DNA of 64,000 nucleotides from Amoebophrya sp. A120 (Eukaryota > Protista > Dinoflagellata). A program made the translations under genes and the position numbers. The stretch spans positions 11,262,634 to 11,326,633 of the forward strand of contig CAJINV010000002.1 of assembly GCA_905178155.1 (NCBI GenBank), read 5' to 3'. Shown here piece by piece: positions 10,981 to 48,000 of the stretch (position 1 is the stretch's first letter; each line of letters begins with the position of its first letter). Below the pieces are notes generated by a model, which saw only the letters and a program-made list of their open reading frames with translations, was not told the origin of the DNA and searched no databases.

Positions 10981-11043
10981 ATGGCGAATGCCATAAGAAA
11001 CGCTATGGCGAATGCCATAGAAAACGCTATGGCGAATGCCATA
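10981..11043. repeat. 24-bp tandem repeat, three self-palindromic units
   Basis: (T)ATGGC-GAAT-GCCATA x3. Confidence 0.9.
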
Positions 11044-11079
11044 AAAAAGTGCACCCGAACATGATAAAAAACAATACGC

Positions 11080-17141: not shown

Positions 17142-20015
17142 TTACGTCTCGCAGTCGACGGTAATCAATCCTGTGCAAAAAAATTGTATCGGAAACGTTC
17201 GTGGTGCGAACGAAATTCCATGAAAACAAATAGGTAGTGTAGTTGGGAAGCTACATGCACATGAATCAAGAATTCTGGTCTTCCTTGCTCTTCGCCTCTT
17301 TACAACTAACACTATCATGGGTACAAGCCTCTCGCTCTCGTATGATGATGATTCTTCTCGCTGAAGAAATAATAAAGGCTTCCTATAATAGATGAATACC
17401 ATCATGCTTGAGTATTCTAATGGAACTGCTGGCGTCATCAAAGGCCTAATTGAGGTAGTTCGGCACTCGTTCGCGATACTTCAACTTCTCTTGCAATGCA
17501 TATAATCACGGTCCGTTTCGTGTCATCCGGACAACTGGCCATAGCCTTTTGGCAAGCATTGCAGACGTGCCCCACAGTGCACGCCTGAATGGCCACGTCA
17601 AACTCCTTGCAGATGACAAATCGGTGCGTGACTATCCAAGAAAAAGGTCTGCGTACTGAATCTAAATCTATGCACTGTCAACACCCTTTAATTATTTTTG
17701 CGTGCCGTACAATTTTTTTCCACACATCTTCACATGTGCATTGGGCATGAACAGATCCATGTTAAGGAGGCGAATAACATAAAAATCGTAGCTCTGTGCC
17801 TGCGCAAATCATGGCGCATGATGAAGGTGCGCTATGTTGTATCCTTGGATTAGGGTTAGGATATAAATCCTTGGATGACAAGTGGTGATGAAGAACAGAG
17901 CGTCTTCTTGCTGATCAACAAACAAAGCGCCTACTTGCTGCTCCTCTTCATCAGAAGTGCACAGTTACATCACTCGAGCAGGACTTTTTCTCCCCGATAG
18001 TGACTGGCAGGTCCGCCTGGCTCGGGGGTACTCCCGGAAGTGCGGGCACCGGGCCATTCCGTTCGAAGTGCAAGAAGCCACGGAAGGGCTCCTCGTTCGC
18101 TCCGCTTCCGGTGGTCAGCTGTATGGATCAGACAAAAACAGTAGCATAGAAAATGTCAGCTTCGTTTCACTTTCGTATGTGACCGCTGGTTTGCGAAAAA
18201 TCTTTATGATCTTCTAAGCAAGAATCCCAGCGGCCTCGTCGTAGCTACACCGTGCGAGCAGTACAAGCGGGATCGTGTTGCGCGTAGGCACACGCTTCTC
18301 TGTCTCGCGGCTAGAACCTATTTTTATACGAAGAAGAACATCCCCTCACGCAGGAAGTCATACAATGTGCAGAAACCTCCTTCTCGTTACGTAAAGAAGA
18401 CTTCTTCAGCAAGACCAGCACGACCACATGCACAATCGGTTCTCGCGTGACAACGAAAGGAGCAATTCTATGCTGCAGAAAAGGGGCTATGTGTGATACT
18501 CTGGTCGCAGATCCAGCGCACGTCTGCCGTCATGTCGAAAGTGATCGCTTGATCAAGTGCAAATGTGTCTGGGTCGAGAAAATGAGTGAGGCGCATTTCC
18601 GTCAGATGCTGCGCAGCCAGGGAACCGCCAGACAAAGCAAAAGAACTGTTCTAATTGAATGCGCTCGGTGAAAAATCCACATGTGTGTTCAAGATGCATG
18701 TAAGTAGCCGACGATCCCGGCGATCATATCAGTTTCAGTGTGGGTATGCTTATGCGGCGCGCAATAAATAAGTACTCGACTTTCTCCTGCTGCGCGCGTC
18801 GCGAAATCAGGACTTTACTACGCGCGACGTCTTTTCGGTCACCACTGAGGCTGTCCCAGGCAACACATTTGCGTTCGTTACTTGTCCTCTGGCGCCGTCG
18901 AGCCACACTTTGAGTCAGCTTTAAACACCTGCGCATTGTTCCTACTAAACGCGTATTGCCTGCAAAAGATCTTTCGCGTGCGTACGTATTTTCGGGCACA
19001 AACTCAGTTTGCTTCTAATGAGCACGAGTACATGACTCGCTTCGGTATCATGGACAATTCAGAATGGCCCTGTGAAAGTGAGCGAACGCACTATCACTTT
19101 TGCGAAGCGTAACGCAAGCTGCTCCTCGGAAAACGCATTGAGTTGCTCGGCGGAAAGCTGTATGGATTGCAAAAGCGCGAGTGCCGCACTCGCCGTGCAG
19201 CTACAAATTGCAATCAAACTTTTGCGCGAGACCGACAGATCGTCAACATCCCGTCTCACTGTCAACATGTACTTACATTATTTCGTGCTTTTATAGAAAG
19301 AGTAAGAGACAGCATCCGAGTGAGAATGGGTTATGCAAATTTTACTGATGCGTCGAATGCGAAACTCCGTTTTTCTTTTTCGGTGGATATGCTGGGCCCG
19401 AGCCGTTCGCGCTTTTTTGGAAACACTCGCCGACACTGTGCTCATCTCGTTCAGCTTCGTGTGATGCTTCGCTATACCGTTGCTGGCAGTCACCTTGTTG
19501 TCGGTTTTTGTTCCTGCAACAGACTTTCCAGATGAGTCAGCGGCTTCTTTTCCGCGCCCCGCAGACGTGGAGGTGGATGCTCTAGTGGCCTTATTCAGCA
19601 AGAGCGACTTGAACAGCGGGGCGGTCGCTAGGGGGTTCAGCGTCAGCTCTCGTTTGACAGAAGTACGACCAGCGGGTGACAACGTGCGCCAATTCGGACT
19701 CTTTGCTTTCCGTAGATCTCCGCCGAAGTTCCTGCTGCGTGTGCCGTGTTCCGTGTCGTGCTCGCCCTCGTGCGGAGGAATTTCGTCCATCCGCCGAACG
19801 TGCGCTATCGCTGAGGCGGTACTGCTCCTCGAGGGCCTGTTGTGTCTTCGCGCAGAACCGGGACCCATTGCCTTTCCTGTCACCGGCCCCGCGGTTGCAT
19901 CTTCTTCCGCACCAGTCGCAACGGAATTATGAACTGCGGATGACACCAGTAGATTGCAAGTAGCTATAATCTGTACCCACAGGCACAACCAGGCGCGGCT
20001 TCCCGATGGACTCAT
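17142..20015 (-). CDS. Secreted protein with C-terminal unrecognised Cys-rich domain (paralog 2 of 4), at least 7 exons
   Basis: Signal-like MSPSGSRAWLCLWVQIIATCNLLVSSA. Reconstructed exons: TADVRWICDQ-MTTGSGANEEPFRGFLHF...PVT-HRFVICKEFDVAIQACTVGHVCNACQKAMASCPDDTKRTVI-TVDCET*. Mostly missing from the ORF track because the exons are short. Confidence 0.85.
17167..17502. mobile_element. Introner, family A-like (336 bp), TSD TAATC
   Basis: AATCCTGTGCAAAA...TTGCAATGCATA; TAATC at 17162-17166 and 17503-17507; join gives TVITVDCET*. Confidence 0.85.
17633..17999. mobile_element. Introner, family B-like (367 bp), TSD GTGAC
   Basis: TATCCAAGAAAAAGGTCTGC vs opposite end (revcomp) TATCGGGGAGAAAAAGTCCTGC; join PVT-HRFVICKE matches paralog PVVNYRFVECKE. 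Confidence 0.85.
18122..18498. mobile_element. Old introner (377 bp), decayed TSD
   Basis: TAT...ATA termini; sense flanks CAGAG / CAGCT; element+5 removal joins WICDQ to xTTGSG. Confidence 0.8.
18954..19111. mobile_element. Diverged family A introner (158 bp), TSD ACGCG/ACGCA
   Basis: TATTGCCTGCAAAAG...CTTTTGCGAAGCGTA; in-frame join EQLA-FSRNNAQVFK. Confidence 0.75.
19161..19389. mobile_element. Diverged family A introner (229 bp), TSD AGCTG/TGCTG
   Basis: TATGGATTGCAAAAG...CTTTTTCGGTGGATA; in-frame join ARAQ-LSAEQLN. Confidence 0.7.
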
Positions 20016-21479: not shown

Positions 21480-24400
21480 CTATCGTGTTGCGACTTCACA
21501 ATTGACCACGTCGATCACTTGTAGGAGCGGAAGCTTGGGCCGCCTCTCGTCTTCCGCTTCCTGGGTTTTGAAATCGATCACCTGCGTGGCATTGTATACC
21601 GACACGCCGGCGTTCTGCCTTTTGCCCCTGGTGCACCGGGAAGTGGCCTTCACGCACGCCGAACAGAAGTACCCGACGGTGCAATGCCGCACCTCCACAT
21701 CAGAAAGCTCTTCCTTGCAGGCGAGGAAATTATGTGTGACCTGGACTCATCGAGTGCAAATTACATCATGACCGGGTGGTCGTCTGCCAATAGAGTGCAC
21801 AACGTTATGGTGCAGCGTCTACACCACCACGGGCTCAATAATTGTGTATCTCGTCTTCACTGGACGACGATGACGTTGACGATGATGACGATCAATACTT
21901 ATGAAGTTGCGCAGTGCAAGTTTTTAAAATACTTACGCTTTTTTGTGTACAGCTGTGTCACAGGTCCGAACCCTTTTCACTATTCCGAGGGAGGGTTCGG
22001 TCAACATTTTCAAAAAACCAAAGGAAACCAATACGTATTCGAATTCGTCGCTACTACAGCTATTTATTTTTATTTTCATCCTGCATGACGAGGAAGTGAG
22101 TGCCCCCGCACCCGGTCCATGTGAAGGTTTTTTGCCTTCGTTCTCGTGCACAGCAGCAGCACCCGGAGATGTTTACAATTTTCACTTCGTATGTCACTTG
22201 CGTCGATATTGTACGGAGACGGAAACCCCGACGCGCCCAACCCAACGCCCTTCTTGTACACGAGGACCCCGCGCGTGCGGTTCACCCCAACGGTCACTTG
22301 GTCACAGATCCACTGGACATCTGCAAAAGAAAACGGCGCGCGGTTTTGTAGGCCCTCGAGCTCCGTGCCGTTCGCTTCCACGTATTTCGTTTTGAACGTC
22401 ACCGCGTCGCCCGCTGTGCAATTCCTGGTCTTGGTGCGCACGTACGGAATTACGGCAGCCCGGCAGGGGCGCGTCATCTGCACGTAGTCGGCTGTAGTGA
22501 CTGACTCCCACGCCGTATCCAAGAAAAAAACGCTGTTAGTGTAAATTGGTGATGCGCAACATGCAAAGTGATTGCGTCTGTCATGCTTGGCATGCATTGT
22601 AGGTCCCATTACAGGGCGTTTTCGCATACTATCTGCGCATGACAGGTTTTTGCTGTCATGCCACACAGATTTGTGATGCTGTTCCTCCAAAAGAGTTACA
22701 CCTACAGCGTTTTTTTCTTGGATACGCCGAATCTCCGGATGCGGGGTGCTCCGACTTCAGCTCGCAGGTAATGCCAGTGCTGTTGTACTTCTGAAACACG
22801 AATCCAGTGCACGCCATGCTCCGTGCGCACAATTCCCGGCATTCTTCGAATGTCTTGCTCTCCGCGACGTCTTCAAGCGTGTTTCCTGTCAGCTGCTTGT
22901 TGCCTTCTCGTATCAAATGTAAAATCTGTATCTGAAACTGAATATTTGATGTCGCGCTCTGGAAAGTAACATCAACATCAAGCGCGGGCGCTTCATTTGC
23001 AATGCACATCTTGGTTGTGTTACGTAAATTAGCAGACGTATCACAAATTCAGACTCAGACATCGACATGCACTGCAATGCATATCTCGTGCGCAGAGTCC
23101 ATTGATGTTGTTCGCGGGGTAGTAGGACTGGGGGAATCCCTATCCAAGAAAAAAATGCGTATAGACTAGTGGAAAAATAACCTGCTGCAATGCAGAACAT
23201 ACAACCGACACACAGCCATTGCGCTGATGTTAGTGAAATACTTTTAGGTGGTCAAGTCATCACGAGCGATCATGACTAACTTTACGCAGGCACCGCTGGT
23301 CCTGGTGCTGGTAGTGATAAAAGTAAATGAGGAGCGCAAGATCTCGCTCCTCCATGGACAAAAAGTCGCCAGATGACTAGTCTTTCTCGTGTTAGTGCGC
23401 AGGCTTCGGAAGTTCTTGTTTTCTGTCATGCGCAAGGAGGATTGCCGCAGAGATGTTCACCTCTAAAGAAGGAGACAATACGCTTCTTTCCCGGGATAAT
23501 TTCGCAAATCGGCAGGCTCGTGTCATTCTGGTGTAGTCCGTCTGCGCCAACGCTACCCTAGTCCCATAATCGTGCACCGCTTTCACCACACAATTGTCTT
23601 CCGTGTCTGCCAGACCGTTCACAAATGAAAAGCCCTCGCAAGTACCCTCTGCCGCGCACCACGCTAGGCATTCGTCGTACGTTTTATGTCCCGGCACCCG
23701 GTCGTCTGGGCCTCCGGCGCCTGGGTTGCCGTCCAGAGCATTGCCTGGGTGGTCATGGTCAACGTCCTTCCCGCAGGCATCGTTGATATCAATCGGCGGG
23801 TAGTACTGCAAAGGCGCCTTTGCGGCTCGACAATCGTCCGTCATGACCGTGTAGTCGGTCCCGTCGTCGTCGCTTACGTCGGTTTCGTTGTGTTGACCTT
23901 TCGCCGCGCAATTGTCTTCTTTGTAGTTTTGTTCTTGTCGCACGTGGACAAATCCCGTGCAATTTATTCCGGTGCAGGACCTTACCGCCAGCGTATCAAA
24001 ATACGGATTATTTGTACTTTATATTTACTTTCGTTTTCACCAAAAAAAAAACCGCAACCGGTCGAGTGTAAACAACAAAACTCTCCGCCCGCCCGGCGCC
24101 TTGGGAGGGGTAGGCACAAAATGCCTTGCTTTCATATGTGTAAATGTTGATACCAACAGTTGTATAGATACCTAGCGTATCAGAGCAGATATTTTCATTA
24201 TCTTTCACAAATTCAGCCGATAATCCTCCTCCGGTAGGCTGTTTTCACAGGGACCGTCCGGGCGGTTGGCTGGACCCTAGCTGCAACACTACATTTTCAT
24301 GTTGAATCATAAATGACCACGAGCACGACTGGTTTTTCATATTATAGCTGGCTAGTCTTTGGTCCTGGAGAGACTACAGCACATGATACCTCCGACAGTC

Positions 24401-28260: not shown

Positions 28261-30322
28261 CGTCGTTTACCCAAACGGAAGGTCGTTCTCGTTTCTGTTT
28301 TCGCAGCCTTCGCATGGCAGTTGCAGCTGCTGTGCTTGCCAGCAGGCCATCACGGTAGGAAAGGGAAATGCGTCCTGTTCCTCACATATTTATTCTCCCG
28401 TCAACTAAAGGTCGGACTCTCTACTGGCGAGATGATGAGTGTGGATACACCTGGCCCTTGACTGGTCCGCCGTGCCTGGGGCGACCGGGGGTCCACGGCA
28501 AACGCGGAACAGAGTCAATGGAGCTACTTAAGTGCTAGTACAGCGCACGTCGAGAGTCTGTGTATTTTTCACCTGTATTTCTCTGGTTGCTTCGTCTGCG
28601 ACCTTAATGGCCAGAAATAATTGGAACTACTTCTACTTTCTTTTTGCACTCGACATGATCGATGTACTCACGACCCGGCGCGTGAGTCCGCGAAAATGCA
28701 GGGACTACAGCACCTAAAGCTGGGCCTGGATCTTCATCTCGCTCAATTTGTGGCATTTCTATGGACGCGTCGTAGAGCGAAGCGGTCGGACAAGTTCATC
28801 TACCGTCAGTATTTACCTTGGCGTGTCCCGCTGCGAGAAAGTAGTTCAAACAAGTCAGCAGGTAAAAACTTGCACTGATCCAGGTGTTCCTGCTGAGCTA
28901 TCATTTTGCACAGCCTGACATTTTGAGAGGTGTCGGTGCGCAATGCGTTTCCCTCATTCCCGATCGCTCGCTCCGCGTCTACAACAACACTACGAATTGA
29001 TCGACGGTAGCTTCTAGGTAGCTGTGATATGTTGACGAGTGGGGCAACGAATTTTTACTTACCGCGAAGAGCGCCCGCCCCGCCTGTCACTCGTTCAACA
29101 GGGTGGAGCTCGGTCGATATGCTTTCGCCCGTTGAAACTTTCGCATTCCCTGTGAAATAATGCTGATGCACGGGGTCGCCTCTGCGCGGTTCGTTTCTAA
29201 GCCCACGGCAGATTATGCAAGACCCAGCACGCCCCCGACTAACAGTAAGAGTCAACATACGATTTGAGTTGTCCTCAGAAGCTGAAACACTGGTGTTAAT
29301 ACTCACATACATACAAATCATAAACTGAGACAGATTCTGAACAGTGAACGTGTTCGTGCGGGTGCGTCTACGATTTACTGAGCATCTCTCTCTGTCTCTG
29401 TCTCTCGATACCGAAAATTGTTGCGCGACAATACTAGCACACGAACAAACGGAGCTGAACACGGACTAGATCAAGTCTACGTATGCATAGCAGTTTCATT
29501 GCCATGAATACGGTGACCAAGCGGACGCAACTCCACAACTGTCATGTTTTCGTTTTCCTGGTTTAGGATTTTTATATTTCCATGTTGTGCGTTTTATTCG
29601 TTTCGCAGGATTACATTTTTTCTCGTGCTAGAGATACAGATACTTCGTCTGAAGATTATGATGATCATCATCGATGCTGTAGTTAGAAATTACAGCTATA
29701 TCTATGGTCCATTTGATGGACATATCGCCAAGAGGGGATTTGGTTTTGAAAAAAATGTTGCTGATACTGGCTGCTGAAGGAGTTGATGAATTGATTCGAC
29801 ATCTTGCTATACTGCATCTCTATGACACTTCGAGTTGACGAAATCAATATCTTTTTGTGAGTTGTAGTGCCAACACGTAGAAGAAGGGGTGGAGCAGACC
29901 AGACGTGTTCTGGTGGTCGCTGGCAGATCAATCAGTTGACTTGTTTCTTTTCGTATCGGACTCCGCTGAGAAGACGAAGCTCGTCGTACGCTTGTCGTAA
30001 GTACCTCCGTTATATTTCAATATTTTTCATGGCTTCGTTTGCTTCCTTGTACAATCAGACAGCAATCAAACTTTCATGCAGAAAGTTGTTTTGGGCACAG
30101 GTCGATCAACATATAATACGATGAGCTGTTTTTCTGCAATACAGAATCGCTCTTGGCGTTTGTTTGAATTTCTCCCTTCAAGGTGGAGAGTAGACGTAGA
30201 CGCAAAGCACAAGAACTGTCCGCTACAGACTGACATCGTAATTAAATTGGTAACCGTGAATAAATTCTTTCTGCTGACAACCGCATCGCGGATAGTGATG
30301 GTTAGTACCAGTGTAGTGCCAT

Positions 30323-31718
30323 CTACGTGCACTTGAGCAATCCGCCTTCACCTGACGCGTCGGGGCCCATCTGCTCTTCCGTCGTCGGCGTGTCCGGGCA
30401 CTTGTCCGTGGCTTTCTGGCACGCATCGCAGATCTGTCCCACGGTGCAGGACATGATGTCGATATCCGGCTCCTTGCACTCGACGAACCTGTAGTTCACG
30501 ACCGGCGTGCTCGCGTTTCCCGCTTCCTCGCCGTCCGCCAGCGTGTGCAGCTTGATAGCATTTCGGGGTGTCGCGAGGTTCTTTTTGTAGTTCAAGAGCC
30601 CTCGAAACGGCAACTCGTTAGTAGTACCAGTCTCCGTTTTGGTCATCTCAGTGCAGATCCACTGCACGTCCGCGGTGTCGGTGACTTCAACGCCCGCATC
30701 GGGGCCCTTCATCGTGCAGTCGACACCCATGGACGCCTTTTTCGTACTTACCAGCTTGCTCTTCGCCATGAGCCCGGCGGCAGACTTGGCCGCCGTAGTA
30801 GTTTTCGCTTTTTTCTCCATCATCATCGACGGCTTGGCCGACGCCGGAGCCTTGGGGTCCGCCGCCGACTTCTTGTTCTCCTGCTTCTTTGCTGCGTCTT
30901 TCAGCTTCTTCAGCGCCGGTTCGCCCTTGCGCTTCGCGAAAATTTTTCCCCCGCTATCCCTTTGGAATAAGAGGGATCATCAGACCAGGCAGCTAGCAAC
31001 AAGATTTTCTTTTTTCCACGTTCCATATAAGTGATGCGCAGTACTACGGTGCTGCGGCTGCACACACTATCACTAGTAAAGTTCAAGACTGGCAACATGT
31101 ATAATATTTCGCGCGTCCTCATTACTGAGCAATTGCATTTTTCACGCACACCAAGGCTCGACTGCACCTTTTGAAAAAACCTTTGCACCGCTGGGGCAAG
31201 CAGCTTCGAACGCAATAGAGAAGTCTAGAAGGGTCAGCGCAGCGAAATATGTCGCGAGTATTTCATCTTCATCATCATCATCTTCCGCCCCGCCGGGCCC
31301 GAGCTGCTAATCATGCAAATCTTTTCTTGGTACGGAGCAACGAGTACGAGTAGCAGTAGAAGTCATCTCTCTTCATCATAACCATGTTTTAATCGATGAC
31401 CTCAAAATTTCCTCAGGATAAAGGGTGTATCCAGAGACGCCACTAGACGCGAGCTGCGTCGCGAACAATATCAAAGTAAGTGGACAACCCCCCTCCCCGC
31501 GACCCTCGATTCAAATTTATACTGCCGCGACAAGAGTACACAGCACACTTTGTGCAGATTGTATCTGGCACTCGTAATTGGCCTTGCTCTTCCATTGACA
31601 CTACGAACTTTTGGTGCAAAATGAGATTTTGTGCTCGTGAATGAGAACTAGGGAGAAATGAGTTGTCCACTTTCGTAAAAATCGTCGACGCGGCGAGAGA
31701 CCGGACTGCGACTCCCAT
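30323..31718 (-). CDS. Secreted Lys/Ala-rich protein with C-terminal Cys-rich domain (paralog 4 of 4)
   Basis: MGVAVRSLAASTIF / LILFATQLASSGVSGYTL-GKIFAKRKG...; TADVQWICTEM..PFRGLLNY..YRFVECKEPDIDIMSCTVGQICDACQKATDKCPD..LLKCT*. Confidence 0.8.
30955..31420. mobile_element. Old introner (466 bp), TSD lost
   Basis: TATCC...GGATA termini with weak TIR; element+5 removal gives in-frame GYTL-GKIF. Confidence 0.6.
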
Positions 31719-34351
31719 CTTGTTTTTGGGTTGCTTTGGTGGTTCAGATTTTTCGGTCTGGTGAGTGCGTGCTCTCAGCTCTCAACACACTGTCACTGCT
31801 AAGCCTAGGTGCGGCTGGAGAAATTTTTGAATTGTTTTCTGGTTCCGCTAAAACTGCCAGCCGAAAGAAAAAGATGATGAACAGCTAGTAACTACACAGA
31901 TGGATCGGGATTGGAATTACTGAGGTGAAAGTCCGGAGGCGTGGAGATTGAAATTTTCGCTACCGCCATGCTTCAGGTTCTGCTTCTGACATTAGTAAGA
32001 CTAAGACATGATAAACTAACATGATTCAAAGTGAGTAGAACGCAAAATAACAGAAAAACGTAAAATATTGCGAGTGGACGTCAACTATATGATTCATTCT
32101 AAGTATGGGTGATCGTTTCACGCTCGGCATCGTAGCCAGGGAGCCCCCTGCTTTATTCAGGAATCGGACTCATTTTGTTATTCTTGTTATCCTGGTCCTG
32201 CTACCCACGGCTGAACCTCTCAACCTTTTCCAATTATTGACCTGGTTCTCGATGCTATCGTAGTCTATCAAATACAAATGACAACCATACTGACCCGGAA
32301 CGCGATGGAAACCCTGCGGAGCATGCTCCTGTTCTTCTGATTCTAGTAGTTAGAGCATGCACGTTCATCATGACAGAGTCAGCGACCACCACACTTAATG
32401 TGTAATTTCATTCTGCACTGGTGTTTGTTTTCGTTTTATCAGGTGCACACACTCACTCTCGCTCCGATTTCTACTTTGCCTTTCCGTCGGTCGTCGGACA
32501 TCACGGTCAACAAGACAGGAGCGCAGCTTCATTTATTATCGTTCTCATACCTCATAGCTCGACCTCGACGTAAAGAGCTTTCTACGTCTACCTATAAATA
32601 TAAAGAAAATGGGTCATAAAGGTAAAGCTTGTACGGAAGCCCAACATGATACGAGCGATAATCTCAAACGGTTCAAAGTCGGAATTTCGAGACGTGGTGG
32701 AAGCATTTTGAAGCATTTTTGTTTATCTACAAAAGCCCCCACTACTCTAACCAGTGCGAAAGAGTTCTTGTTCAAGTAGAAGACCAAGATCTAGATCATG
32801 ACCATGAGCTGTATTATATTTGCTTTTGGCCCCACTCCAGGGAGAAGGAACACGAGGCACGCGGTAGAGGTGCAGGTGGCGGAGTAGAAAACAAAATCTT
32901 CTTGCTCAGCACTAGACTTTTATCCTCTACGTCAGCAACTCGTGCTGCCGCTCGGTGCTTTATCTTTTTTCTTCTCTGCGCATCTTCGACTGTGCAAGAG
33001 TTTCCTCTTGCTCCAGAAGTACTACGGGCCTCGACGTGATTGATTTCGTTGGTTCTGGAAGAAGGTACAGACACACTGGTTCAAATTGTTCTCCTCGCGA
33101 CGCTACTGACTAGAAGCATGTCAAAACTTGTGTTTCGTTTCCACTAGAAGCCGACTTGCAAAGTCACAGCCTAACGGTCGCGCTGTCTAAACATGGACAA
33201 GGAGCAGAAGCAGATGATCACGAAATACCAAAGAATAACTCCCCATGTACCATCGAGCTTCGTGCAAAAAGACAGGTCCGGCTTTCGTTTTGGCTAGCAA
33301 GCAGCACGACGGCATCACCGTAGCCTTTTTTCATGATGGTTTAGGTCTTTTCGGGCCTCCGCCTGGCCATAAATTGCCTTCATATCTTTCTTTGCGTGAC
33401 GACGAACTCTCGTGTGGGTACGTCGTTTTTCAAAAAGCTTAAGGTATTGCTCAACTGGGGAGCACTGGTCCTCCGGACGAAGATCCGCCTCCGATTCGAC
33501 CCGCAGCAAGACTTGTGCTTGTCACTCCGACACCACTGCACGAGGCGTTTAACTTATGCCGGCGTCAGGCGGGCTTTCAGACGTCGTTTTTACGAGTCGG
33601 GGTAACGCAGTCATCATCCTGCAGTACTCATTCATTAGACTTCGACCAGGATGAGTCAGAGGCAAGTTTGTTCTTTTGTTTTTCTTGATCGTCCACAAAA
33701 TCAATACATGCACATGCCAAATGCGGAAGCCCCCGCTATCGAAGGCTGTAGAAAAGTGTCGCAGACAGCAGCTGAGGTGAGGACGACTGGCAACATACGA
33801 GTGTAAGACTAAGAGCAAGACAGCCTGACGCTTCCATAAAAAACCGGCCCCGGAGCCAGACACAATATGCAAAAGAAAAGCACAACTCAACCTCCTGTCC
33901 TCGTCGTAGTCATTGAGAAGGACAAGGACCTATATTAATTCGTCCTACTTATTTTACATTCTTCAAATCTTTGAGCCGCACCTTGATGGATGGACGGCTT
34001 CACTTGAATTTCTTGGCACTGGCAGTAAGCACAAGAGGGACACCACATGGTGGACTAAACGAAGAAAACCAAAATATAATGAACAGTGTTGTGCAGCTTT
34101 CTTTCACAAGACAAACTTTTTTTCTCTGTAGGATCGCAGAAAAATGACTCTTACTCAATGCTGATTGTGTGGGCGTGCGTTTCCATTTCTTCGCATACAC
34201 GACCTGGTCTTCAACAAAAGAGGTGGCATGGGACTTCGCTGTCCTGTTCTTATCGCACGGAAAGATACAACTGACTACTTCGAACGCGACGACATGCTTT
34301 TTCTAGAAATCAAAATAAATCGTACAAAAAAATCTGCTGCAATCCGAAGGC

Positions 34352-37300
34352 TCAGACGACAGTTCTGGAAAAATGCAAATAGCCATGGGCATGGCGCATA
34401 GAGAAAGAAATTGCATGCGATGCCGATGCGCCTATGTTTTCATGGCGTCTACCTGTCGATGTCAGAGACAAATTCCATGTGATAAGTCTGATCAGAAATT
34501 CTGAGCTTGGTGAGGTTTGTAGTGTGGTCGAGAATAGCGACCGATGAGGTGGACCCGCCATTGCGCCGTAGTCCTGAGCGGCCTTATTGGCTCCCCCAAA
34601 AACAGCATTCCTTGGTTGAATTGCGGCTGTCTGTCCACCCTTGGAAGCGCCGGCATTGCACCTGTTCCCTACAAAAGCCGCAGCAGGAGCTGGTCTAGTT
34701 TTCATTTTACAAGAGCCAGTGCCAGGTAGAGCCCCAGCTGAGCAGATACCGCCCTCGTCATCATCTGCGGCCGCAAAAGTTCCTGCGGTCAGTGCCTTCT
34801 TGCCAGCGCCTCCGCCTGCGGTGGTCCTCTCCGCATTATGATCTTGTCGTACAACCGGCCGTGGAGGGCGAGGGATCATCTGGAGGAGTTCTTCCGTGGG
34901 ATTGGTTTTCCGATCTCGGAGGTTTGTGACTTTGTCTAATCCCTGTAGCGGGGGCGGTGCCGCAACTACATTCAGCGGCGCTTGTTTGCCGTTGCAGGTG
35001 CGGCCGTCACCGCCAGCCAGTACCTGCAGGTGCGTAAAACCGCTGCTCGTGTTCGCTGAGGTTACCGACCAACCAGATGTTGTTGAAGACTCCTGTGTGC
35101 TAGTGGTGGCCACTATGCCATGCAAGTTTCCCTCCGCACACTTCGGCCGGTGCGCAGTGGGCGACTACATGATCATAAACATGGTCAAAGGAAGCAAAAA
35201 GACACACACCTGGTAGTGCACCCAAGAGGTGGATCATGAAAAAGCTTCGCAATTCCTAAGTACCCTACACTTGTTCACCTTGCGACGCCGAGGCGCAGGA
35301 AAGCGATCATAACAGTGGGGTGTTATATTTATGAGAAATTCGCGCACAGCACCTTTCGAACGAGTGGAGATTTCGTTTTTTCAAATGGATAGTGACAAGA
35401 TCACCCCCTTGGCGCGGGCTGAGAAACCCGGAAGTGGACATTACCTTCTGGAAGATCGGGGGACGGGTGCTTGTATACATTGCAAAAATATACCGCGGCG
35501 ATTGTGTGTAGTTGTAAAGTACGTACAGGCGCAACAAGCGTATTAGAATTAGTACAGCATATTACAGCATTCAATGCTCCACCCGAGCCCGATAAAAACG
35601 AAAGAGAAAGCATCTGCTTCTGCTGTAATTTATGCAATGTGTACGTACTTGTAAAAAGAAGACTGCGATACTTTTGCACATCAGCATAGGCAAACGGCGG
35701 CGACAGAAACCCCGGCCGTGCGGCAAAGGACGGCTTCTGCTGAATGAATTTTGAGTTCGCCGCAGGGCGAGGGTTTGATCCAAGAACTGCACTCCGCTCA
35801 GGACGACCCGCGTCGCGGTCACTACCTGACTCTGTGGTTTGAATTTGATAGGGGTGGCGCTGCCGGTGCGCTTCAATATCCGGCACGTGCTGTAATTCCT
35901 CTACTGCTTGCGTAGTGGTACCGGTGAGGACGTTAGTCACGCAGTGACCCGAGTGAGTTGCGTTTCCGTTGGCGGCTACCTTCACGGCGGTTCCATTGGC
36001 ACCGGTCGCGCGGCTTGGACCAGTTCCAGTGCGCGGGGGTCGTTGATCGTTTCCGATCCCGGCCCTGGATTTACTTGCTTCGGCATCGGCCCGCACAGTA
36101 GCGACACCTGTGCAACTAGTAGAAGGGCAATCTGTAACGGCCGCTACCGTACGCGGAGTAAAAGAACGCATACCGCCGGAAAAAAGTGCTCTACCTTCGA
36201 TCAGCGCGCTGCCCCAGGGCCGGGCCTTCGCCACGCCGGGCGCACCGACTGGTGCGGTACCAGCGGCCGGAGGACCAGCGGATTCCGGTACTCGATTCGG
36301 GACAGTGCTGTCAGTAGGATGAGGTGGACGAGCCGCGGTCATTTCAAGCTCTTCCAGCTCGTTCGCATCGAATTCCTCTGGAACGCAACCAACAAAAAAA
36401 TCATCTTGATGATTTCTCTCCTCTTCAACAGCAGCCGTTTCTTGGTGGCGTGGAACTCGCATGAGGGTCGCATGCTCACTTTTGGTCAATAGGCAATTTT
36501 TATGTTTCATCATCTGCCTGCTTCTCAACGAAACTGACCCTTTTGCGTGATTTTGTACTTGTCCGGGACTTGCTGCTCCTTCTCCTGTTATTTCATCTTC
36601 CCGGTCTGCCGCCGCTGGCGCTTTGCTCTGCGCGGGAGCGTTGTTCATCTGCGGCTCGTTTTGTTTCCTCCCCGCGTTTGCTTGGGTCTGTGCGCCGAAG
36701 CTGCACATCGACGTGGTGGTCTCGGCTGGAACTACCATCAGATCCTGCTCATGCAGCAAAACCGTTGCCTCGGAGATACTGTCGCTCGTGCGACGTACCG
36801 GCTCGACTTCCACGCACGTCCTTTCCGGCGGAGCCACGGGACCAGCAGGCGCAGACAGGGCATAGCCATTCGCATTGACATTGAGACTGACGTTGCTGCA
36901 AATCCTGCTGCTACAAGTCGGAGTCACGTTAATATCCACCGCACGGTCGCTTCTACACGATTCTGCTACTGCTTCGGTGGGGTCGCCGCTAGTGGAGGAC
37001 ATCCCCACCACCGCCACCGTGTCGTGTTCATCTTTATCCACTTCTGCTGCTGGTTGTGAAAGCCCGAGTGCACCGCCTGATTGTGATGGTTGCTGTTTGC
37101 CTGGACAAGGAGTCCCGGATTTATTACATGGCCTCGCCGTCTGTTTCTGAAGAAGTGCGATGCTACTTCCCGCGACGTCCTGCTGCGTCCCCGCTGGGCC
37201 AACTGTCGCGGGGGCCGAGCGGTCCGCAGCCGGGGCAGCCACTGGCGGCGTTACGGACTCGGCAGCCGCGGTGGTAAAAGAATCGGGGCTGCAAGAGGAA

Positions 37301-38904: not shown

Positions 38905-41900
38905 TCAAGAAAGTAATAAAAAAGTAGACGCCGAATTAAAAAAAATACTGTAGTGATTCCTGCTGGCGGCGAAGGTCGTCCCAGCCGTGGTGTTCGTTGC
39001 CCTTGTCGACGAACGCGCACTCAAGGGTGGAAAATGGTTGGTGGCCGTGCGCTCGCTTATGCGCCCCAGCGGCAAAAAAGAGAAAGATCCAGTTGTGGGA
39101 AAGACACCGCCCACCTGAAGACTGCTTGACGCGCACGAGCTGCCAGACGGCGGACTACCGCGCTCATCGGGTGGAGAGTCGTTCTTCCTTGTCGATGATG
39201 AATTCCCGGTATTTTCGTCCCTGCTAAGATGTGCCACTTTTTCCTTTGTGGAAAGAAACTGCATTTCGTTCCTGTCTCTCGGTCTTACCAGGTGCTGTGA
39301 CGCTTCGACATCTCCTCGCGGCTCATGATGTGGCAGTCCGATGCAACATGCCTGATCGTGGTCTCCGGCGGGTTTGTGGAGGGCGCGTCGGGCCGCTGCT
39401 GATGGTGGAACTGCACAAGTGGAAGCGCCACCGAACCTCTGTAGGGCGGATGAAAATGAAGGATCAACTCCGAACCGGCCGCCCGCCGGACGGTTTTCCT
39501 GACCATGAAGATGGCCTGGCGTCCAACTCCTGTCATCTTCACTGTCATCGCGAAGTCGGCGGAGATGACGACTTTCGTCGATGGAGGCCTCTCGAGTGTG
39601 GGGCGCCTGGGTACCCACGGGTACCAACATCGACTCTGTGCGGACATCAACCCTCCTATCACGAGGAAAAAAGCAATCCCCCTTCCCTGTGCTGAGAGGA
39701 CGAGTCTTCGAGTCGGTTGTCGCTTCTGTGCGACTGTTGAGTACGCAGGTCTATTACACTGCTTGCCAGCTTTCAGTGCGTATTGCATGAGGGGCAAAAA
39801 CAGCCTCTTCTTTCTGTTGCATTTTCAACTGCAAAAATCTTCTTCGTTGGGTGTGTGTGTGTGGGGGGAGAGAGGGGATCTTTTCATGAAGATACCTTTG
39901 GTGCGGAAAGGACTCGGGACGCGGAAATCGACTTTCCTTGGACAGCTGCCGCCTCTTGGTTGCCTATCCTGTGCAAACACGTCTCCGCCCCATAGTCAAG
40001 AACATGAAGTTGACGAAGTTGCCAAGGGAAACTCGGAGAATACACGCACGGCATGACCACTCATTTCCGACTAGTACTGCGGACGGTCACAGAGATGCAG
40101 AACTCTCACTATTCTGTAGTTGATGTTTTTAAGTACTCGCACTCATATGTAGTGTCCTCCAAAGATTAATACTACAAACTGTCAGTTGACTTGTGCTCGA
40201 TGTGGTAGAAAAATTACGCATCTTCTGGATTCATCCTTAGAAAATAATACTACTAAACGACTGTACTACTACGACGCATTCATGGTTAGACTCTCGGGAC
40301 CTGATCGCGTTTTTCCACAGGATAGAGCCCGCGGCCGCCGCAGTGAGGTGCACTCTGCGGAGGTGTCGCCATCGTTTTCCGGACCCCGCTCTTGTGGCGG
40401 AACTACCACTGCAGGGGCCGATGGGGTGGGCACGCTTGCCTTACGTTCTTGCTGAGGACTGATCTTCGATCGGCACGGTTCCGCCCTGTCGGCAACATCG
40501 TCGACACTGTCGCTTGCCCGGTTCCTCGAGTGGGATTATTCGCCTGCAGATTACAACCATTGCTAGCATCGCATCATGCACATGGAGATTGACAGCATGC
40601 AAAGAACCATAACAACACCTTCTACTCAACATCGGTCAGTAGTAAGAACAAAACTTGCCTGGATCTCAGCCTCAAGATGTGATACAATTACAATGTGGGC
40701 TATCATAGTACGATGTTGACGTAGACGTAGTTAATGATCGATGCATGGTCTATTTTTTCGAAATTGACCACACTGTGCACTCCCATAAACATTGCAACGG
40801 GATGCGGGGTCAAGCACTTCACTTGACCTTGGCCTCCTCAAATATATCTTTCTTGAGTCACGACCAACGCGACAACGAATGTGAGCAGTTTCGCGCTATG
40901 CTAACTGTTTCGCACATGATAAACCCGGGTGCTTGCTAAGATCTACGTCGACGGCAATCGGAATGGAGCAACTTGTGCTGCTGGCCTGGATATGGATTGC
41001 AAAAGTATCACTGTAGACCACGTACATCGTACCATTTGCAGTGACGATTGGAAGCACGTTCCCGCACCTTCGTTGGTGGCATGTACATATAGAATTTTTT
41101 TCTTTGATGCCATGATTTCTGCAAAGAATTATTCAACAACTGGTGTACGTAAAACTAAAATCGCAGAATTTGGACAAAAAAATGCAGATGTTCGCATCGC
41201 TTACGATAGTTTTGCAATGCGTAGAATGCTTCGGAGGAAGAAGTGGAGGAACAGCCGAGCGCCGTTTTGGAGGAGCTCGCTGTCGTATTCTTGCTTGTTA
41301 TGCTGATTTCCCGCGTGATATGCCACGCAAATTGTTTACCGGAGGACACATGCACAACAAGAAGGAAAATTCAAGGTAGATCCTCACCGCAATAGCAATA
41401 GCAATTTGACGACTACCAGTACACAAAAAGTCCGAAACTGCAGAATATTGAAAGAGTGAAGAACAAGGTGTTTGGTCATGTTCATGCAAGAACGACCTCG
41501 ACCGCAAAGTCAGGATGTACAGTGCTACAACATGCACCAAGGTAAATGACATTTGCTCCGTGGATACTGCAAGTTCTCTCGTCGCGACGCTCCTCCACAG
41601 AGCTGTTCCGATCTGTTCGTAGAGGTGCAACTGGTTCCCCTTGCATTCCTTATTTGCGCACCTGGCTGTAATGATAGTGCGTGTGGCTCCACAGCAACAG
41701 CTGCTATCCCGACCTCGGCACCTCCCGGCGGACGCCCCCCTGTACTAGGAGGCGGCGCGAGCCCCGCAATTCTCGGTGGCAGGAAAGGACTCTGAAAGCC
41801 CGCTCTCGGCGTTGCAGCCGGCGGTGGCAAAGCTACCAAAACGCGCGTGCCCAACAAAGTGCGCTCTTGCACTTTCCCTGCTGCTTGATATGGGTTCTGC

Positions 41901-42208
41901 CCGATACCCGCTTGGTTTGCACTGGGATCTACCACATCCACAGCGTCCACAACTTGGTGCGCGCCCCTGGTGTCGTTGTTGATTCCCTGTTGGCCCTGGC
42001 TGCAACGCTTCGAGAAAGACGTCGCCCGTTCTGCCAGGGGCCTCCGCGCGGATGCGTCCTGCCCCTGGTGTTCCCTTGGTGCATGAAAGACTCCACGCAA
42101 CGCGGCTGGCAGAAAAGCACTAGCCCAGTTTTCTTTTTCGTTCCCTTGGCGAACACCCTTCTTAGGCCCCCCGGAAAAAACCATAGAGGGCATCATGGTC
42201 CTGCGCAC
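38905..42208 (-). CDS. Low-complexity exons, a separate gene or the 5' part of the 34-38 kb gene
   Basis: ORFs 41525-42208 and 38905-39630 plus short GC-rich intervening segments. Confidence 0.4.
40991..41223. mobile_element. Diverged family A introner (233 bp), TSD lost
   Basis: TATGGATTGCAAAAGTATC...CGATAGTTTTGCAATGCGTA; element+5 removal leaves an open frame SEAL-ASSTSC. Confidence 0.65.
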
Positions 42209-42912
42209 AGCCAGGAAAGTCGTGAGGCACTCGGATGCTAAACTACGACTATTGCTAGTATTGTCTGATGGTGTACTTGTAGTCGCTTCTTGCAGCAGTT
42301 CAATGCTACACTTTTAAGAACTTCCTTCGATCTTTGTGCCCAAGCCCCACTCAATGTCAGTTGATGCAGATGCCATGCACATTGATATTATCTCAAATCA
42401 ATAAACAAAATGTAAATGAACAATGGTACAGCATCTGTCCAATGTTGCCATGCTTTGCTTTACTGCTGTCAATCTTCAGAATAAATAGCAAAGTGTCTCT
42501 TTGAATGAATGATGCGATACTACACTCCGCGCATGGATCTGCTGTGCTAATCATGAGCAAGCTTGCAGATATTCCTGTTCCTACACTGGCTACTGGAATT
42601 TTCAGTTACTGCATGTATGCTTTTGTCTTTGTGTGCTTTTCAGATGTATGTTGAAAGAAGGGAACATCAAGCACCAAACACAACAAGCCTGGAACTAACC
42701 TCCCATCGAGGTTGTGCATCAGTCTCAGGATAGAGACGAAGATGTATGTCGGCATCCAAACATAAAAAGTCGGTATGATTTTTCACCAGCACATTGATTC
42801 TTCCGTTTAATTTCATTTTTTCGCTTTCGCAACAGCAACTACATAGAAGATCGCCCATCGATTCAACCGCAAAAAAAATGATGTGCTTGCGCCATTCCAA
42901 AGGACGTGACCG

Positions 42913-43754
42913 TCAGCAAAGCAGGGCGTCTGAGAGGCGTTGAAACGGTATTCTGCCCACTTGGTCTGGGTCCAGCTCGCAGATTATAGCTGGCTCAGGT
43001 GGTCGCGCAAGAAGGGTCTCAACTACAACTGTCACGATTTGAAGCTTTTGGAGATTTGTGATGACAAGAGCTGCATACACAGGCCCATCCTGCTCAGAGG
43101 AATTCGGGTGGAAAGGTATGGCTCTGGAACTGGAGATGTTCATCTTCATCAAGATGAAACCGCATGGTATGAGCAGAGTCAGAATCCAGTATTCAAATTC
43201 GCACTGTAAGTGTTATTCATGCAAGACCAGCTTTCGTTGCGGCGGCTGAGATTGATGCTTGTAAGAACACCTGAGTAGGCTGTACGAGTCAAGGTGTCTG
43301 CCTGTTCTGCTGTCAGCTTCTCTCCGAGGTTGGTCGAGATGTACCTGATTACCTCCATGGACACTGTGTCCCTTTCGTCGATAAACATACGGAAACGCTC
43401 ACGCAGCACGTCCGGCGAAAAGACGCCGTCGCGAAAATTCCGGAGGATGCATTTTTGTAAGATCTCGCCGAAGTGCTCGAAGTTGACGCCTTTATTTTTC
43501 TTCGTACTGAACTCAAGGGGGATCCCGTACGCACCCTTGGCCTCCACCATCGCCGCGAATTCGGCTTCTGTCACCAGCGCCCCGCCGGCTTGCAGGGCAA
43601 GAAATGTGTTCTGTTTATTTAACACGCCCTTCCCGGTCTTGTCGTAGTACATGAACACCATGCGGTCGCGAGCGCGACGCTTCTCGAACGAAATGGACTC
43701 GAATACACGTATGGAAATGCCGAAAAGCTCTATCACCACTGGAAGTTCTGGCAA
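42913..43754 (-). CDS. Calmodulin / myosin-light-chain-like EF-hand protein
   Basis: [64 protein letters not shown]; compare calmodulin [21 protein letters not shown]. Start uncertain. Confidence 0.85.
42985..43284. mobile_element. Introner, further TIR family (300 bp), decayed TSD
   Basis: TATAGCTGGCTCAGGTGGTC vs revcomp end TACAGCCTACTCAGGTGTTC; removal restores the last EF-hand. Confidence 0.8.
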
Positions 43755-45004
43755 TAATACTACGTAGGCTCAGCATGCAAGAAACGGAAACCGTCTCACT
43801 CTTTTTTTCATGAGTTCCGTCATGATGCTGATGCAGCAGTGAGTAGATGAGCATGAACCGCAATACTTGTTTTGCGGATAGACCTGCTATACAGACTACG
43901 CCTAGGATCGTGTCTTGATGAAATAACAACAAAACTGCACGAACAACTGCTTGCGATAGCCCTTGTCATTTCCATACCTCCCGGCATGATTTGATGAAGT
44001 AGATATCTCTTTGATGTTTCCCGACGGCAGATTGCATACGAATTTGACCGGATGGCAAATCAATGGGCATTCAACTCAGATTCAATCAAGGTCAAAGTCT
44101 TTTTAGCAAAAAAAGTGGTCTGTACACCACAGCATTTGTACCTGCAGTGCAAAGTAGCAGGAAGCTAAAATATATGACCTCTCCTAGTAGTTTCAAAAGC
44201 TGCTCGCTGTCCAGCCTTGTGCTTGAGATGCTTTGTTATACGCTGGACCGCTTCCAGCAAGATGAGTTGGCACCATGTCCAGAATTCTAACTAATACGCT
44301 AGGCAAATGCATAACTTCCAACAAGTCAGCGATGGCAATATCTTCCTCTGTGCTCGTCACAGTGCGAGGGCTCCTTTACAGGATAGAGACAAGTGGTTGC
44401 GCATTTTTCCTGCTCTGCTGGTACCGCGAGCACAACTCAATATGCATCGCGGAGGTGGTACGCAACCGCGACTAGCTGGACACAAATCAAGAGATTTCTT
44501 CGAAGCGCCATTTAATGTTCAGACATTTGCCGTCATTAGCGGCAGCGAAAGATTATCATACATTTGTTTGGTACGATTTACGCTCTGTATCTTTCACCGT
44601 CTGCGCGTGCGCCTGCGCGTCGTTTGTAGACATTATTTCTTTGTGTCGAGGAGTAAAAAGAAAAAGTCACGCGTTCCTCTTCCTCCTCCTGGTTGCTGTA
44701 GTTACAGCTGCAAACGGCACAAAAAGACACAGCAGCGCAACTGGGTCCGCTTTGCCTTTGCAAGAGTAAAAAATGCCTCGTCACCTTTGCTTCATTTTCA
44801 GTTGTTCTGCTTCATTGGAAAAAAATACATTCGTACAGATTATCAAGTCGACAACGGAGTCCATTTTGAGCTGTTGGCGAACCGACTACATGAAAAATGA
44901 CTCTGACGCGATGCGTTCTTCAAGTGTTGTAGTTTGAATTTCATTGTACTCGTTCTGCTCTTGATACATTCCCGATTTGAAGATGTCGCTCCCGCCGGGC
45001 TCGG

Positions 45005-48000
45005 CTACATGCCATACACGACGTCCCGAGCGTATACCTCTTCGTGGTCGGCGCTTCTGCGACTCTTCATCGGTTGCAGAATCTTTTCCGGCTGCTCTTG
45101 CAACAGGCTGGACTGCAGGTCTTCGAACGGGGAGTGTGTGCCCAGGACTGGGTGCGCCGCAAGGCTCGAGCATTGCCCCACGCAGAACCGACAAGCTTCG
45201 GAGCTGCTGTCGACCTCACACTTGCTTTTGCACGGCTCAAAGCAGGTACTGGGAATGCTACAATCGTTTCCGAGGTACTCGGCCCAGCAGGTGCATCGGC
45301 CGTTCATGCAGGCCCCGTTACCGGAGCAGTCGCTGGGGCACCTCGGTAGGTCGCAGTTGGGACCCATCATCTTCGCATCCTGGCACTCCTGGACCTCGCA
45401 GATGCTACCCGTGAATCCGGGCTGGCAGCTGCACTGACCCATCAGGCAAAGCCCGTTGCCACTGCACCCGCTCGGGCACTGGGCCAGTGTGGTCTCGAAG
45501 CTTTTCGTCGAGCAATCGTCTCCAGCAAACCCCGCTTTGCAGCGGCACTCGCCGGGTGAGTCTTGCATCGCAAACACGCACTCGCCATTGCTGCTGCAGT
45601 CGTTCTTGCACTTTATGAACTGCAAAAGTATCGTATTCGTACTCGTATAAATGCATTACAAATTTCCTCAGCAAGAGAAATGGAATTTGTCATGCGGATT
45701 TACCTTCGTAACAAGATTTGTAATGTTGCAAGACTTGCATTTATACGAATACGATACTTTTGCACAGGATACACTTCGGGTCCCGGCAATTGGCTCCAGC
45801 CCAACCGGGATCGCACAGGCACGTAGCGTCACTTCCACAGACACCGTGACTACCGCAGTCGTAGGGGCATTGGTGGGTAGAGCAGTCGTCCCCCCCGAAG
45901 CCCGCCGCGCATGTACAGGTTCCTTCTTCACTGCACACGCCCTGGCCGTGGCAAGCGTTCCACTTCCGCAGCGTTTCGTCGTATCTTCCGGGGCACTGCG
46001 GGGCCTGGCAAAATTCCCCCGTCCAATACTATGGCCCACTCAAGTGTTCAGAATTTCATCTGCCCCAACCATGATTCATGTACGTGTAGTCGTTGTCGTG
46101 CCGCGTAGAATAAAGAATTGCCTGACATCGAATTGTCCAGGCTCTTTGCAATACACATTATAATTTCATGTTCATCGTAACAGACACTAAAACCAACATG
46201 CTGCGCTAGCAGTACCCTACGAAATGTCTCTTGAGGAAGTTGCAGTCTGACGCCTGAGCTTGCAACATCTGAGTGGGGCATAGCTTCATTTCGCAAACGC
46301 ACATACCACGACTCGAATCGCATCGCCCATGCCCGCTGCAACCGCCGTCAGGTCCGCAGACCTGGTCTGAGACCTCCGCCAGCGGTCCCCCGAGCCCGGT
46401 GATCGCCGCCGGCCCCGCCTCCGAGGTTCCACCTCCCGCACCTCCCCCCGCTCCCGGACCGGCCGCATCTGCGGCCGGCGCGCCCGCCGCCAGAAACTGC
46501 AATTCGCATTTTTCGCCTTGCCACCCCTGATTGCAGCTGCATTTGCCGTTAAGGCAGAGACCCCGACCGTTGCAGTTGTCTGGGCATGAGGATGCGACGG
46601 GCGTGCTGCAGCTAGCCCCAATCCATCCGGTTTTACAGACACAGTTCCCATTCGAGCACACACCGTTCACACCGCAGCCGGGGTCGCAAGTAGCCACGTC
46701 GAGCACGGGAGCGGGCGGTGCTAGCGCCCTGTTCTCGCAGTTTTCCCCGGAGTAGCCGGCTTCGCAAACGCAGAGCCCAGGCTGGTCGCAGGTCCCGTGC
46801 CCGTTGCAACAGCTGCGTGCGGCGCAGTCCACGCCCTTGAAGCCCTCGAAACACATGCACTGCCCGTTCATGCAGTGCCCGTTGTGTGAGCACTCGTTCA
46901 AATATGGTGTTGCACAACCCGCCCTCACGATCCTCCTTCTCATCTAGGATTCATAGTGCTGAGTCATTGTCATGTCCTACTAGCCCGTTAGTTCGGCGTG
47001 ACCCTGTACGAAAATCTTCGAAGGGGGCAAATGCCACAATACAGTCGGGGGATGTATTTTCGCACAAGTAGAGAACCAGTCTAGGCGTTACTTCGTTCTG
47101 TTGGGGGCGTGTCTGTGCCCCGGCTCTCACTCGTCCACTAAATGAAGGGGTGGGGAACAAGCGGTGCGCTCTCATAGCGGACACGCGTGCTGGCACGACA
47201 AGCCCGAGTATCCGGGGTAACACTCGCAGGTCCCGACATTGCACACGCCACGGTGACTGCAGGCGTCGGGGCAAGGCTTGGACTTGAGCTTGCGGAGCGT
47301 AGATATCAGACTTAGTGGTGTTGGACTCGGACGTGGCCGCGCTTTTTGTAAATTCAGAGTCACGACAAGGCCCTGCTGCGACAGAGTACTGCAATCTGGT
47401 CCAGTGTAGCCCGGGTTGCACTCGCACTTTCCCTCGGTGTTGCAGTATCCGAACCCGTTGCAGTCCCGCGGACACCGCTGAAAATCACACGCTCGCCCGA
47501 ACGTGTCCGGGCCGCAAATGCACATGCCTCCGACGCACAACCCCTTCAGGTTGCAGTCCTTCTCGCAACGCGGCGTGTCGCAGGCTTTGCCCGTGTATTT
47601 CGCATCGCAGGTGCACACTTCGGTCGACGCCCCATCGGGCCCAGTGACTGTTGTCAGCTTGCCGTTGCCGCTGCAAGGAACTAAGGCCGCGCCGGCTGTT
47701 GTAGAGGACGACCCCTTCTGCCCCCTGGCATTTAGGCTGGCGAAAGTGTTCGCTTCTTCGTTCTGCAAAAGCGACATCGAATTCTTCATCAGCCATGACT
47801 GTTCAGGAACGGCCTCAAAAGCATCATCGAGACCGCCGCGGCCGTGTCGCGCGGACCGTACCGAAATCATCGCCGCATTGTTAGTCGCTGGCGCGAGCGC
47901 AGGACCGCTAGACGAGGACACCTGCGTCAATGCAACCGACTGGGAGCGATGTTGCGACGATGTTTCAGCTCCATTCGACTGTTTCTCAGAATCAGCTTGA

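Follow-up and report, generated by a model that had tools for sequence, protein, structure and literature searches.

The stretch analysed here, hereafter the window, comprises 64,000 nucleotides of the dinoflagellate Amoebophrya sp. A120 (contig CAJINV010000002.1, positions 11,262,634 to 11,326,633). It carries minus-strand genes interrupted by non-canonical introns that derive from transposons, elements of about 150-1200 bp with TAT...ATA ends and terminal inverted repeats, lying between 5-bp target duplications in either orientation and with no target preference. All 24 joints counted in this window confirm that these introns are cut at one fixed register, in which the element is removed together with the single base ahead of it and the four that follow it (4+1). 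Two of the host genes are the following.

42769..44240, minus strand, transcript of an EF-hand protein, one exon of which matches an Amoebophrya sp. A120 protein at 100% identity
44552..51600, minus strand, tenascin/teneurin-type EGF-repeat gene, open reading frame of at least 1149 amino acids across six 4+1 introns

Junctions were taken from assembled contigs of runs X1-X3 (one sample from one study, with the RNA nature of the runs labelled as a guess), compared with the window over 16000-35900 and 39900-51300. In support of an RNA origin, these contigs skip elements that run X6 covers; this DNA-like run spans 16000-22543 and 22697-35900 as single pieces without the RNA-like joints. In X3, a loose end of eight T at 42745 is consistent with the poly(A) tail of a minus-strand gene. 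Where their stretches overlap, the three runs agree on the joints. The seawater metatranscriptome X5 contributed 2 records to the comparison over 39900-51300 and no joint. The raw-read runs X9 and X10 placed 0 reads on the window, and variation was judged from contigs.

The joints considered were 15 of 24 rows for 16000-35900 (13 from X1) and 15 rows for 39900-51300. Two joints of the first region, seen only in X6 inside a high-copy element, were dropped, as were three of the second region with both ends within copies of one repeat family (21-27 nt a side). The X1 joint 30005-30308, which is GT-AG-compatible and has no inverted repeat, was set aside. Candidates from a motif scan, e.g., 43710-43976, were accepted only with a contig joint present; the candidate pairs 50773-51170 and 42985-43891 match none and were rejected. 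A strict inverted-repeat search returned young copies only and missed most of the old introns. RNA editing was not needed; the listed base differences all lie within repeat copies. The 24 counted introns are given below with their end letters and, where listed, the number of registers, i.e., of equivalent cuts that the joint permits.

17163..17503, minus strand, A-TAT...ATT-GATT, perfect duplication, seven registers
17629..18000, minus strand, C-TAT...ATA-GTCA, perfect duplication, seven registers
18118..18499, minus strand, G-TAT...ATA-CAGC, junction WICDQM, one register, no stem pair in register above P 0.2
18547..18881, minus strand, G-TAA...ATC-AAGC, two registers
18950..19112, minus strand, T-TAC...ATA-CGCG, six registers
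19157..19390, minus strand, A-TAT...ATA-CAGC, five registers
21744..22192, minus strand, A-TAC...ATG-AGTC, two registers
22512..22725, minus strand, G-TAT...ATA-CGGC, young and high-copy, 21-nt perfect inverted repeat, perfect duplication
22907..23084, minus strand, A-TAT...ATA-CGAG, perfect duplication, no predicted terminal stem
23137..23499, minus strand, T-TAT...ATA-GGGA, junction FAKFP, four registers, 4+1 compatible
30951..31421, minus strand, T-TAT...ATA-GCGG, one register, duplication 1/5 identical
31465..31678, minus strand, T-TAC...ATA-TTGT, three registers
39961..40325, minus strand, C-TAT...ATA-GGCA, one register
40533..40922, minus strand, T-TAT...ATA-ATCC, one register, no predicted stem
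40987..41224, minus strand, C-TAC...ATA-TCCA, one register
41315..41567, minus strand, G-TAT...ATA-TCAC, two registers
42981..43285, minus strand, G-TAC...ATA-ATCT, junction LTRELD in the EF-hand gene, two registers
43706..43977, minus strand, G-TAT...ATA-CGTG, two registers
45610..45772, minus strand, G-TAT...ATA-AAGT, young, of the ~150-bp family, perfect duplication, six registers
46026..46283, minus strand, C-TAT...ATA-GTAT, junction CEMKWTG, one register
46899..47177, minus strand, C-TAT...ATA-TTTG, junction CPNEC, two registers
48050..48221, minus strand, A-TAT...ATG-CTAG, one register
48829..49301, minus strand, A-TAT...ATA-CAAA, one register
49405..51088, minus strand, C-TAT...ACA-TTTA, 1684 nt, one register, with a nested younger element at 49536-50700

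The equivalent cuts were enumerated for every joint and expressed as k, the number of bases of the upstream duplication kept in the message. Nine joints permit a single register, six permit two and nine permit three to seven. A k of 4 is compatible with all 24, compared to 6 for k=0, 7 each for k=1 and k=2, 12 for k=3 and 11 for k=5, and the intersection of the permitted values over all joints is {4}, an outcome with a chance of about 1e-10 if k were uniform. The nine single-register joints, spread over five genes, are all 4+1; each starts with N-TA and carries an A at -7, and TA is found at no other offset from -3 to +5. An earlier sequence-only reading of the window had proposed this split from five predicted junctions, and all five are present and spliced as forecast in the RNA-like contigs. 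The window spliced at the contig joints yields WICDQM, CPNEC, CEMKWTG, LTRELD and FAKFP in long minus-strand open reading frames of 376, 1149, 1149, 189 and 424 amino acids, respectively. In 6/6 transcripts the joint-spliced frame is the longest minus-strand one, for 29400-31810 narrowly so (257 vs 253 amino acids).

Target duplications are perfect in five of the window introns. In introns 40533 and 40987 the two copies share 0/5 bases and the cut still falls exactly at 4+1, thus the duplication itself is not the guide. The inner stem alone selects the 4+1 register in 13 of the 15 ambiguous joints, including all with changed outer triplets, so that the choice of register is not circular. A nearest-AG or GT-AG model was rejected: an AG within 1 nt of the cut at 18118, 40987 and 48829 is left unused, and intron 18118-18499 holds a GT...AG pair one base shorter that is not used either.

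At the donor, position +1 is free (A6 C6 G7 T5), while T at +2 and A at +3, both supplied by the element, are present in 24/24 joints, as the sequence-only reading had stated. The TAT...ATA triplets that it gave as intron ends are typical but not strict, with T at +4 in 18/24 and A at -5 in 20/24. Positions -4 to -1 are free as predicted; AG ends two introns and GT starts seven, with both together in 0/24, and no G+1/G-1 or A/C pairing rule is seen. The assumption of an acceptor without sequence requirement, however, is not well supported: A at -7 is invariant (24/24) and is followed by a pyrimidine in every case (T in 23, C in one), therefore the acceptor side does carry a motif. At +12 to +14 of the donor, A is found in 16-17 of 24. 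A leave-one-out weight matrix over 61 positions placed the donor exactly in 19/24 and the acceptor in 22/24 introns, with an information content of ~8.4 bits and ~9.8 bits, respectively. Sequence alone is sufficient to locate the splice sites.

If the ends are drawn as a hairpin, the partner of +2 is -5 and that of -7 is +4, which places each invariant letter opposite a variable one. The invariant positions +2 and -7 are kept in 48/48 cases compared to 38/48 for their partners +4 and -5 (Fisher p=0.0012), and the asymmetry is likewise seen in the 15 joints with at most two registers (p=0.0105). In 9/9 introns with changed outer triplets the ends fit as transcribed only and fail if flipped. This one-sided conservation likely shifts the mechanism from structure to sequence.

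Folding was run at 19 °C with a threshold of P 0.2 for pairs in the register that a hairpin ruler would demand. Such pairs are predicted in 17/24 introns and missing from 7/24, which are cut precisely nonetheless; the stem-less set includes five unique joints (18118, 30951, 40533, 40987 and 48829). Intron 49405-51088 has a perfect stem of 8 bp that is displaced by two bases, yet its cut tracks A-7, with the frame open across it. Among the window introns, the inner GCAAA/TTTGC pairs are well kept.

Exon 43287-43703 of the EF-hand transcript is 100% identical to the public protein P0001, named Amoebophrya sp. A120. The public model misses intron 42981-43285, and its last residues are translated intron. 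The 4+1 product LTRELDP, unlike P0001, agrees with two orthologues, which have LRELDP at this place. One X3 contig retains this intron at a depth of 12.8, vs 90.9 for the spliced form. Elsewhere on the minus strand, cysteine-rich genes at 16628-20285 and ~30320-31810 have the motifs WICDQM/WICTEM and a C-terminal CTVG..C..CQKA...CPD in common, which suggests that the cysteine-rich genes at 16628-31810 are local paralogues with different intron positions. The compared regions further hold these features.

30005..30308, minus strand, GT-AG-compatible intron just after a stop codon, seven registers
33551..34485, minus strand, three implied introns (33551-33839, 33862-34198, 34247-34485), joints unlisted, 70 exon bases by the rule and 70 in the contig
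35110..35392, minus strand, implied intron C-TAT...ATA-GTGG, acceptor side only checked, by a contig-piece end

Two of the implied introns enclose a micro-exon of 22 nt (33840-33861, minus strand). The GT-AG-compatible intron has TA at +2 and +3 and A at -7, hence canonical introns may share the rule.

A 20-base arm of the family was searched in metagenome contigs, of which 25/64 parts were scanned. At least 152 loci carry it, and both ends were located in 130. The 5-bp duplication is perfect in 94/130, with at most 13 for any other length, its base composition is near even, and most copies measure 140-165 bp. Orientation could be called for 57 of 121 copies (30 and 27, with 64 undecided). Young copies carry mismatches directly after the 3-bp TAT/ATA end, and these copies are too young for an arm-asymmetry test, because their far arms are nearly all TAT. 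A decay profile over the five positions of the duplication had been proposed as a check of the register; it could be drawn and is flat (117, 117, 119, 120 and 118 identical of 130), but does not discriminate between registers, since each position combines one exonic and one intronic copy and is uninformative without ancestral states. No orthologue of the window was found among the 152 loci, with one 211-nt repeat match only. The ~150-bp family is abundant in metagenome contigs (L001-L152) that do not overlap the window, and an A120-like genome with this family therefore occurs in an environmental assembly.

Within the window, the family at 22516-22724 is of very high copy number, with a summed depth in X6 in the thousands vs ~42 for single-copy DNA and with many different flanks. 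The nested element at 49536-50700 (1165 bp) has near-perfect inverted repeats of 39 nt, 11-mer tandem repeats close to either end and a perfect 5-bp duplication; it lies inside intron 49405-51088 and could be excised ahead of it, as a nested intron. An element at 59251-60228 (978 bp, 62-nt inverted arms, perfect 5-bp duplication) lies outside the RNA-compared regions. In addition, a palindrome with 61-bp arms is found at 9086-9209, and at 10734-11640 several inverted repeats are nested in a cluster that also has tandem repeats of 22-24 bp.

On balance, we lean slightly towards a U2-type spliceosome that would read a relaxed N-UA donor and a predicted branch A at -7, with a short tether fixing the 3' cut without AG. 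In this scheme, +2U and +3A would correspond to a canonical GUA donor minus its G, A-7 would be the predicted branch nucleophile, and the G+1:G-1 and branch-A:A-2 contacts, which read the AG in other species, would have been lost. The short distance from branch to 3' end may then serve as the ruler for the 3' cut. In yeast, U6 A51 is the pairing partner of U+2, G+1 that of G-1 and the branch A that of A-2, and splicing can do without Slu7 if the branch-to-3' distance is below nine nucleotides (10.1101/212811). Nearly all spliceosomal proteins as well as U2, U4, U5 and U6 have been reported from A120, whereas U1 small nuclear RNA (snRNA) was not detected (Farhat et al. 2021, PMC7789003). The inverted repeat would bring the ends together, perhaps in place of the undetected U1 snRNA, and would not set the register. 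Because both arms begin with TAT, either orientation would supply both motifs, and because the element with one base ahead of it and four behind it is as long as the element with one duplication, every insertion would start out as an intron that leaves message length unchanged. Group IIA introns have their branch at about -7.

Several observations weigh against this preferred, sequence-read scheme. The asymmetry falls short of significance if only the nine joints with a unique register are counted (p=0.49), the weight matrix is blind to orientation (14/28), and a T two bases before A-7 occurs in only 6/24 introns, a poor match to the usual U2 pairing motif. One metagenomic copy (L139), known from its sequence only, may break the +3A rule, as its donor arm, assigned by a weak codon score, reads TTT. 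The folding models leave out proteins and co-transcriptional folding. Pairing is stronger between cognate arms, with a mean of -15.9 kcal/mol, than between mixed ones, with -8.9 kcal/mol, and the ruler diagonal leads in aggregate (71/144 pairs vs 28-44) and gives the best stem in 13/24 introns. Better cognate pairing and the best ruler diagonal fit a role of the hairpin or simply shared ancestry. Finally, a protein nuclease could just as well be what recognizes the invariant letters.

The sequence-only reading had attributed the register to the hairpin itself, i.e., the inverted repeat would fold and a modified spliceosome would cut one base before and four bases after the stem, with a branch, if any, elsewhere. 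The pairing data just listed and the well-kept inner pairs speak for such a ruler, as does the finding that euglenid nonconventional introns hold paired motifs at fixed distances from both ends (PMC11170887). The outer pairs, however, break one-sidedly and without compensatory change, young copies are mismatched right after the 3-bp end, seven introns have no predicted in-register stem and intron 49405-51088 follows A-7 rather than its best stem. A hairpin ruler is thus not well supported and appears unlikely to us. We are similarly doubtful about a spliceosome-independent route, which by analogy would consist of a protein endonuclease recognizing sequence and structure of the element ends, cutting at 4+1, and an RNA ligase joining the exons. 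The lack of GT, AG and a terminal pairing rule and the undetected U1 snRNA (PMC7789003) would be in line with it, and euglenid nonconventional introns, for which an endonuclease and ligase have been proposed but not shown, leave full-length circles and not lariats (PMC11282704). Yet the letters kept are spliceosome-like (U+2, A+3 and, close to the 3' end, an A with a pyrimidine after it), the repeat layout is shared by 15% of canonical A120 introns (PMC7789003), the GT-AG intron 30005-30308 also fits N-TA...A-N6, and no such enzyme has been identified, although none was searched for. Introns of the tRNA type, removed by endonuclease and ligase, have a bulge-helix-bulge or a tRNA fold at the cut sites. 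An Rfam scan of the window returned no family at gathering score, with no dedicated search for a bulge-helix-bulge or tRNA fold.

The single register might also arise in assembly or by selection, if cuts varied and the dominant or viable form alone survived in the contigs. Contigs do lose rare variants and come from one sample here, one of them retains intron 42981-43285, and in Farhat et al. the position of the sites with respect to the hairpin is described as variable (PMC7789003). Against this, k=0-5 all preserve length and frame, therefore decay of frameshifted messages cannot pick k=4; the unique joints agree in 9/9 cases across five genes, the three runs are concordant where they overlap and the orthologues back the spliced product at 42981-43285. 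We consider this explanation very improbable.

Returning to the U2-type scheme, a wider claim would be that the A120 spliceosome has dropped recognition of the first and last intron base, and that N-UA with an A seven bases from the 3' end defines the intron. A palindromic TAT...ATA transposon end with a 5-bp duplication would then make a perfect orientation-free intron at any site, which would account for tens of thousands of non-canonical introns. The claim would extend to the same +2U/+3A in strain A25, and we see it as evenly poised between right and wrong. A fixed N-UA...A-N6 rule would turn the 'variable' boundaries into a precise signal, name one nucleotide as candidate branch point and separate spliceosomal from nuclease models. 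It would also explain the harmless spread of the elements in either orientation and at any target, and allow re-annotation, the public model of one window gene missing such an intron. If the branch reading holds, A120 would offer a natural case of exon ligation by a spliceosome in which G+1:G-1 and branch-A:A-2, the contacts held responsible for choosing the 3' site, are absent.

The sequence-only reading knew of no prior description. Hairpin-ended non-canonical introns of A120, or introner elements, have been published, however (Farhat et al. 2021, PMC7789003): more than 60% of 66,565 RNA-supported introns are non-canonical, their splicing mechanism is stated to be unknown, and the element has inverted repeats that begin with TAT, seven variable bases and AAA, with direct repeats of 3-5 nt (5 bp in the legend of Fig. 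S19). The window introns share the host, the TAT-starting repeat with an A run and the direct repeat overlapping the boundary, and their elements are repeated in the genome and removed from RNA-like contigs. The text of that paper, as available, sees no clear splicing signature, calls the sites 'variable' relative to the hairpin and leaves an A at -7 unmentioned; more may be visible in the logos of Fig. 3 and in Figs S19-S23. In the literature searched, which covered few subscription papers and no figures, neither a fixed 4+1 register nor an A at -7 was found to be described for Amoebophrya. Hence the introns are known, while the fixed register, confirmed in the window, is as far as we have read missing from the published record, which claims the opposite. 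In Table S4 of the same paper, the top A120 non-canonical pairs all start with N-T (T at +2 in 9/9) and have A at -2 in 8/9, compared to 5/24 for A at -2 in the window; wrong-strand reading of some junctions would be expected to produce such a mirror image. For A25, the top 9/9 pairs are TT-NN and the repeats begin with TTA (PMC7789003), so that the donor would again have +2U and +3A, with +1 coming from the element.

Introners with target duplications and terminal inverted repeats in other work (PMC9860276, PMC12130899) likewise derive from DNA transposons and restore mRNA length by sharing the target duplication. Those introners take GY or AG over from the duplication or bring these letters along, whereas the duplication letters are free here. 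Among 22 of the 58 A120 families in Dataset S2 of PMC12130899, the labels are mixed (co-opting both sites, co-opting the 5' site or carrying the 5' site) and the duplications have lengths of 2-5, so that no single rule is given for these 22.

Euglenid nonconventional introns (PMC11170887, PMC11282704) resemble the window introns in having no GT-AG, terminal pairing, junction repeats and motifs at fixed distances. Their motifs, CCAGG at +3 to +7 and CCTG at -9 to -6, are mutually complementary, and the introns leave circles and occur in a different lineage. The pairing of CAG at +4 to +6 with CTG at -8 to -6 is absent from the 24 introns, which have TAT...ATA instead and, in contrast to the euglenid ones, conservation on one side of the stem. 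Nor do the 24 have the GT/GC donor with AG acceptor of U2-type introns. The non-canonical introns of Fritillaria borealis (PMC11282704, PMC13326754) derive from miniature inverted-repeat transposable elements, likewise lack GT-AG and are handled by a conserved U2-type spliceosome; their ends, however, are mostly AG-AC or AG-AT with an exonic TAC, and end preferences and U1 are conserved. In Entamoeba invadens (10.1101/2022.06.08.495308), an A likewise keeps a short and almost fixed spacing to the 3' end, at -8 compared to -7 here. There, the branch at -8 is reported and GT-AG with a full AYTRAY is kept, whereas the A120 introns of the window keep the A and a pyrimidine only, and branching at this A is predicted.

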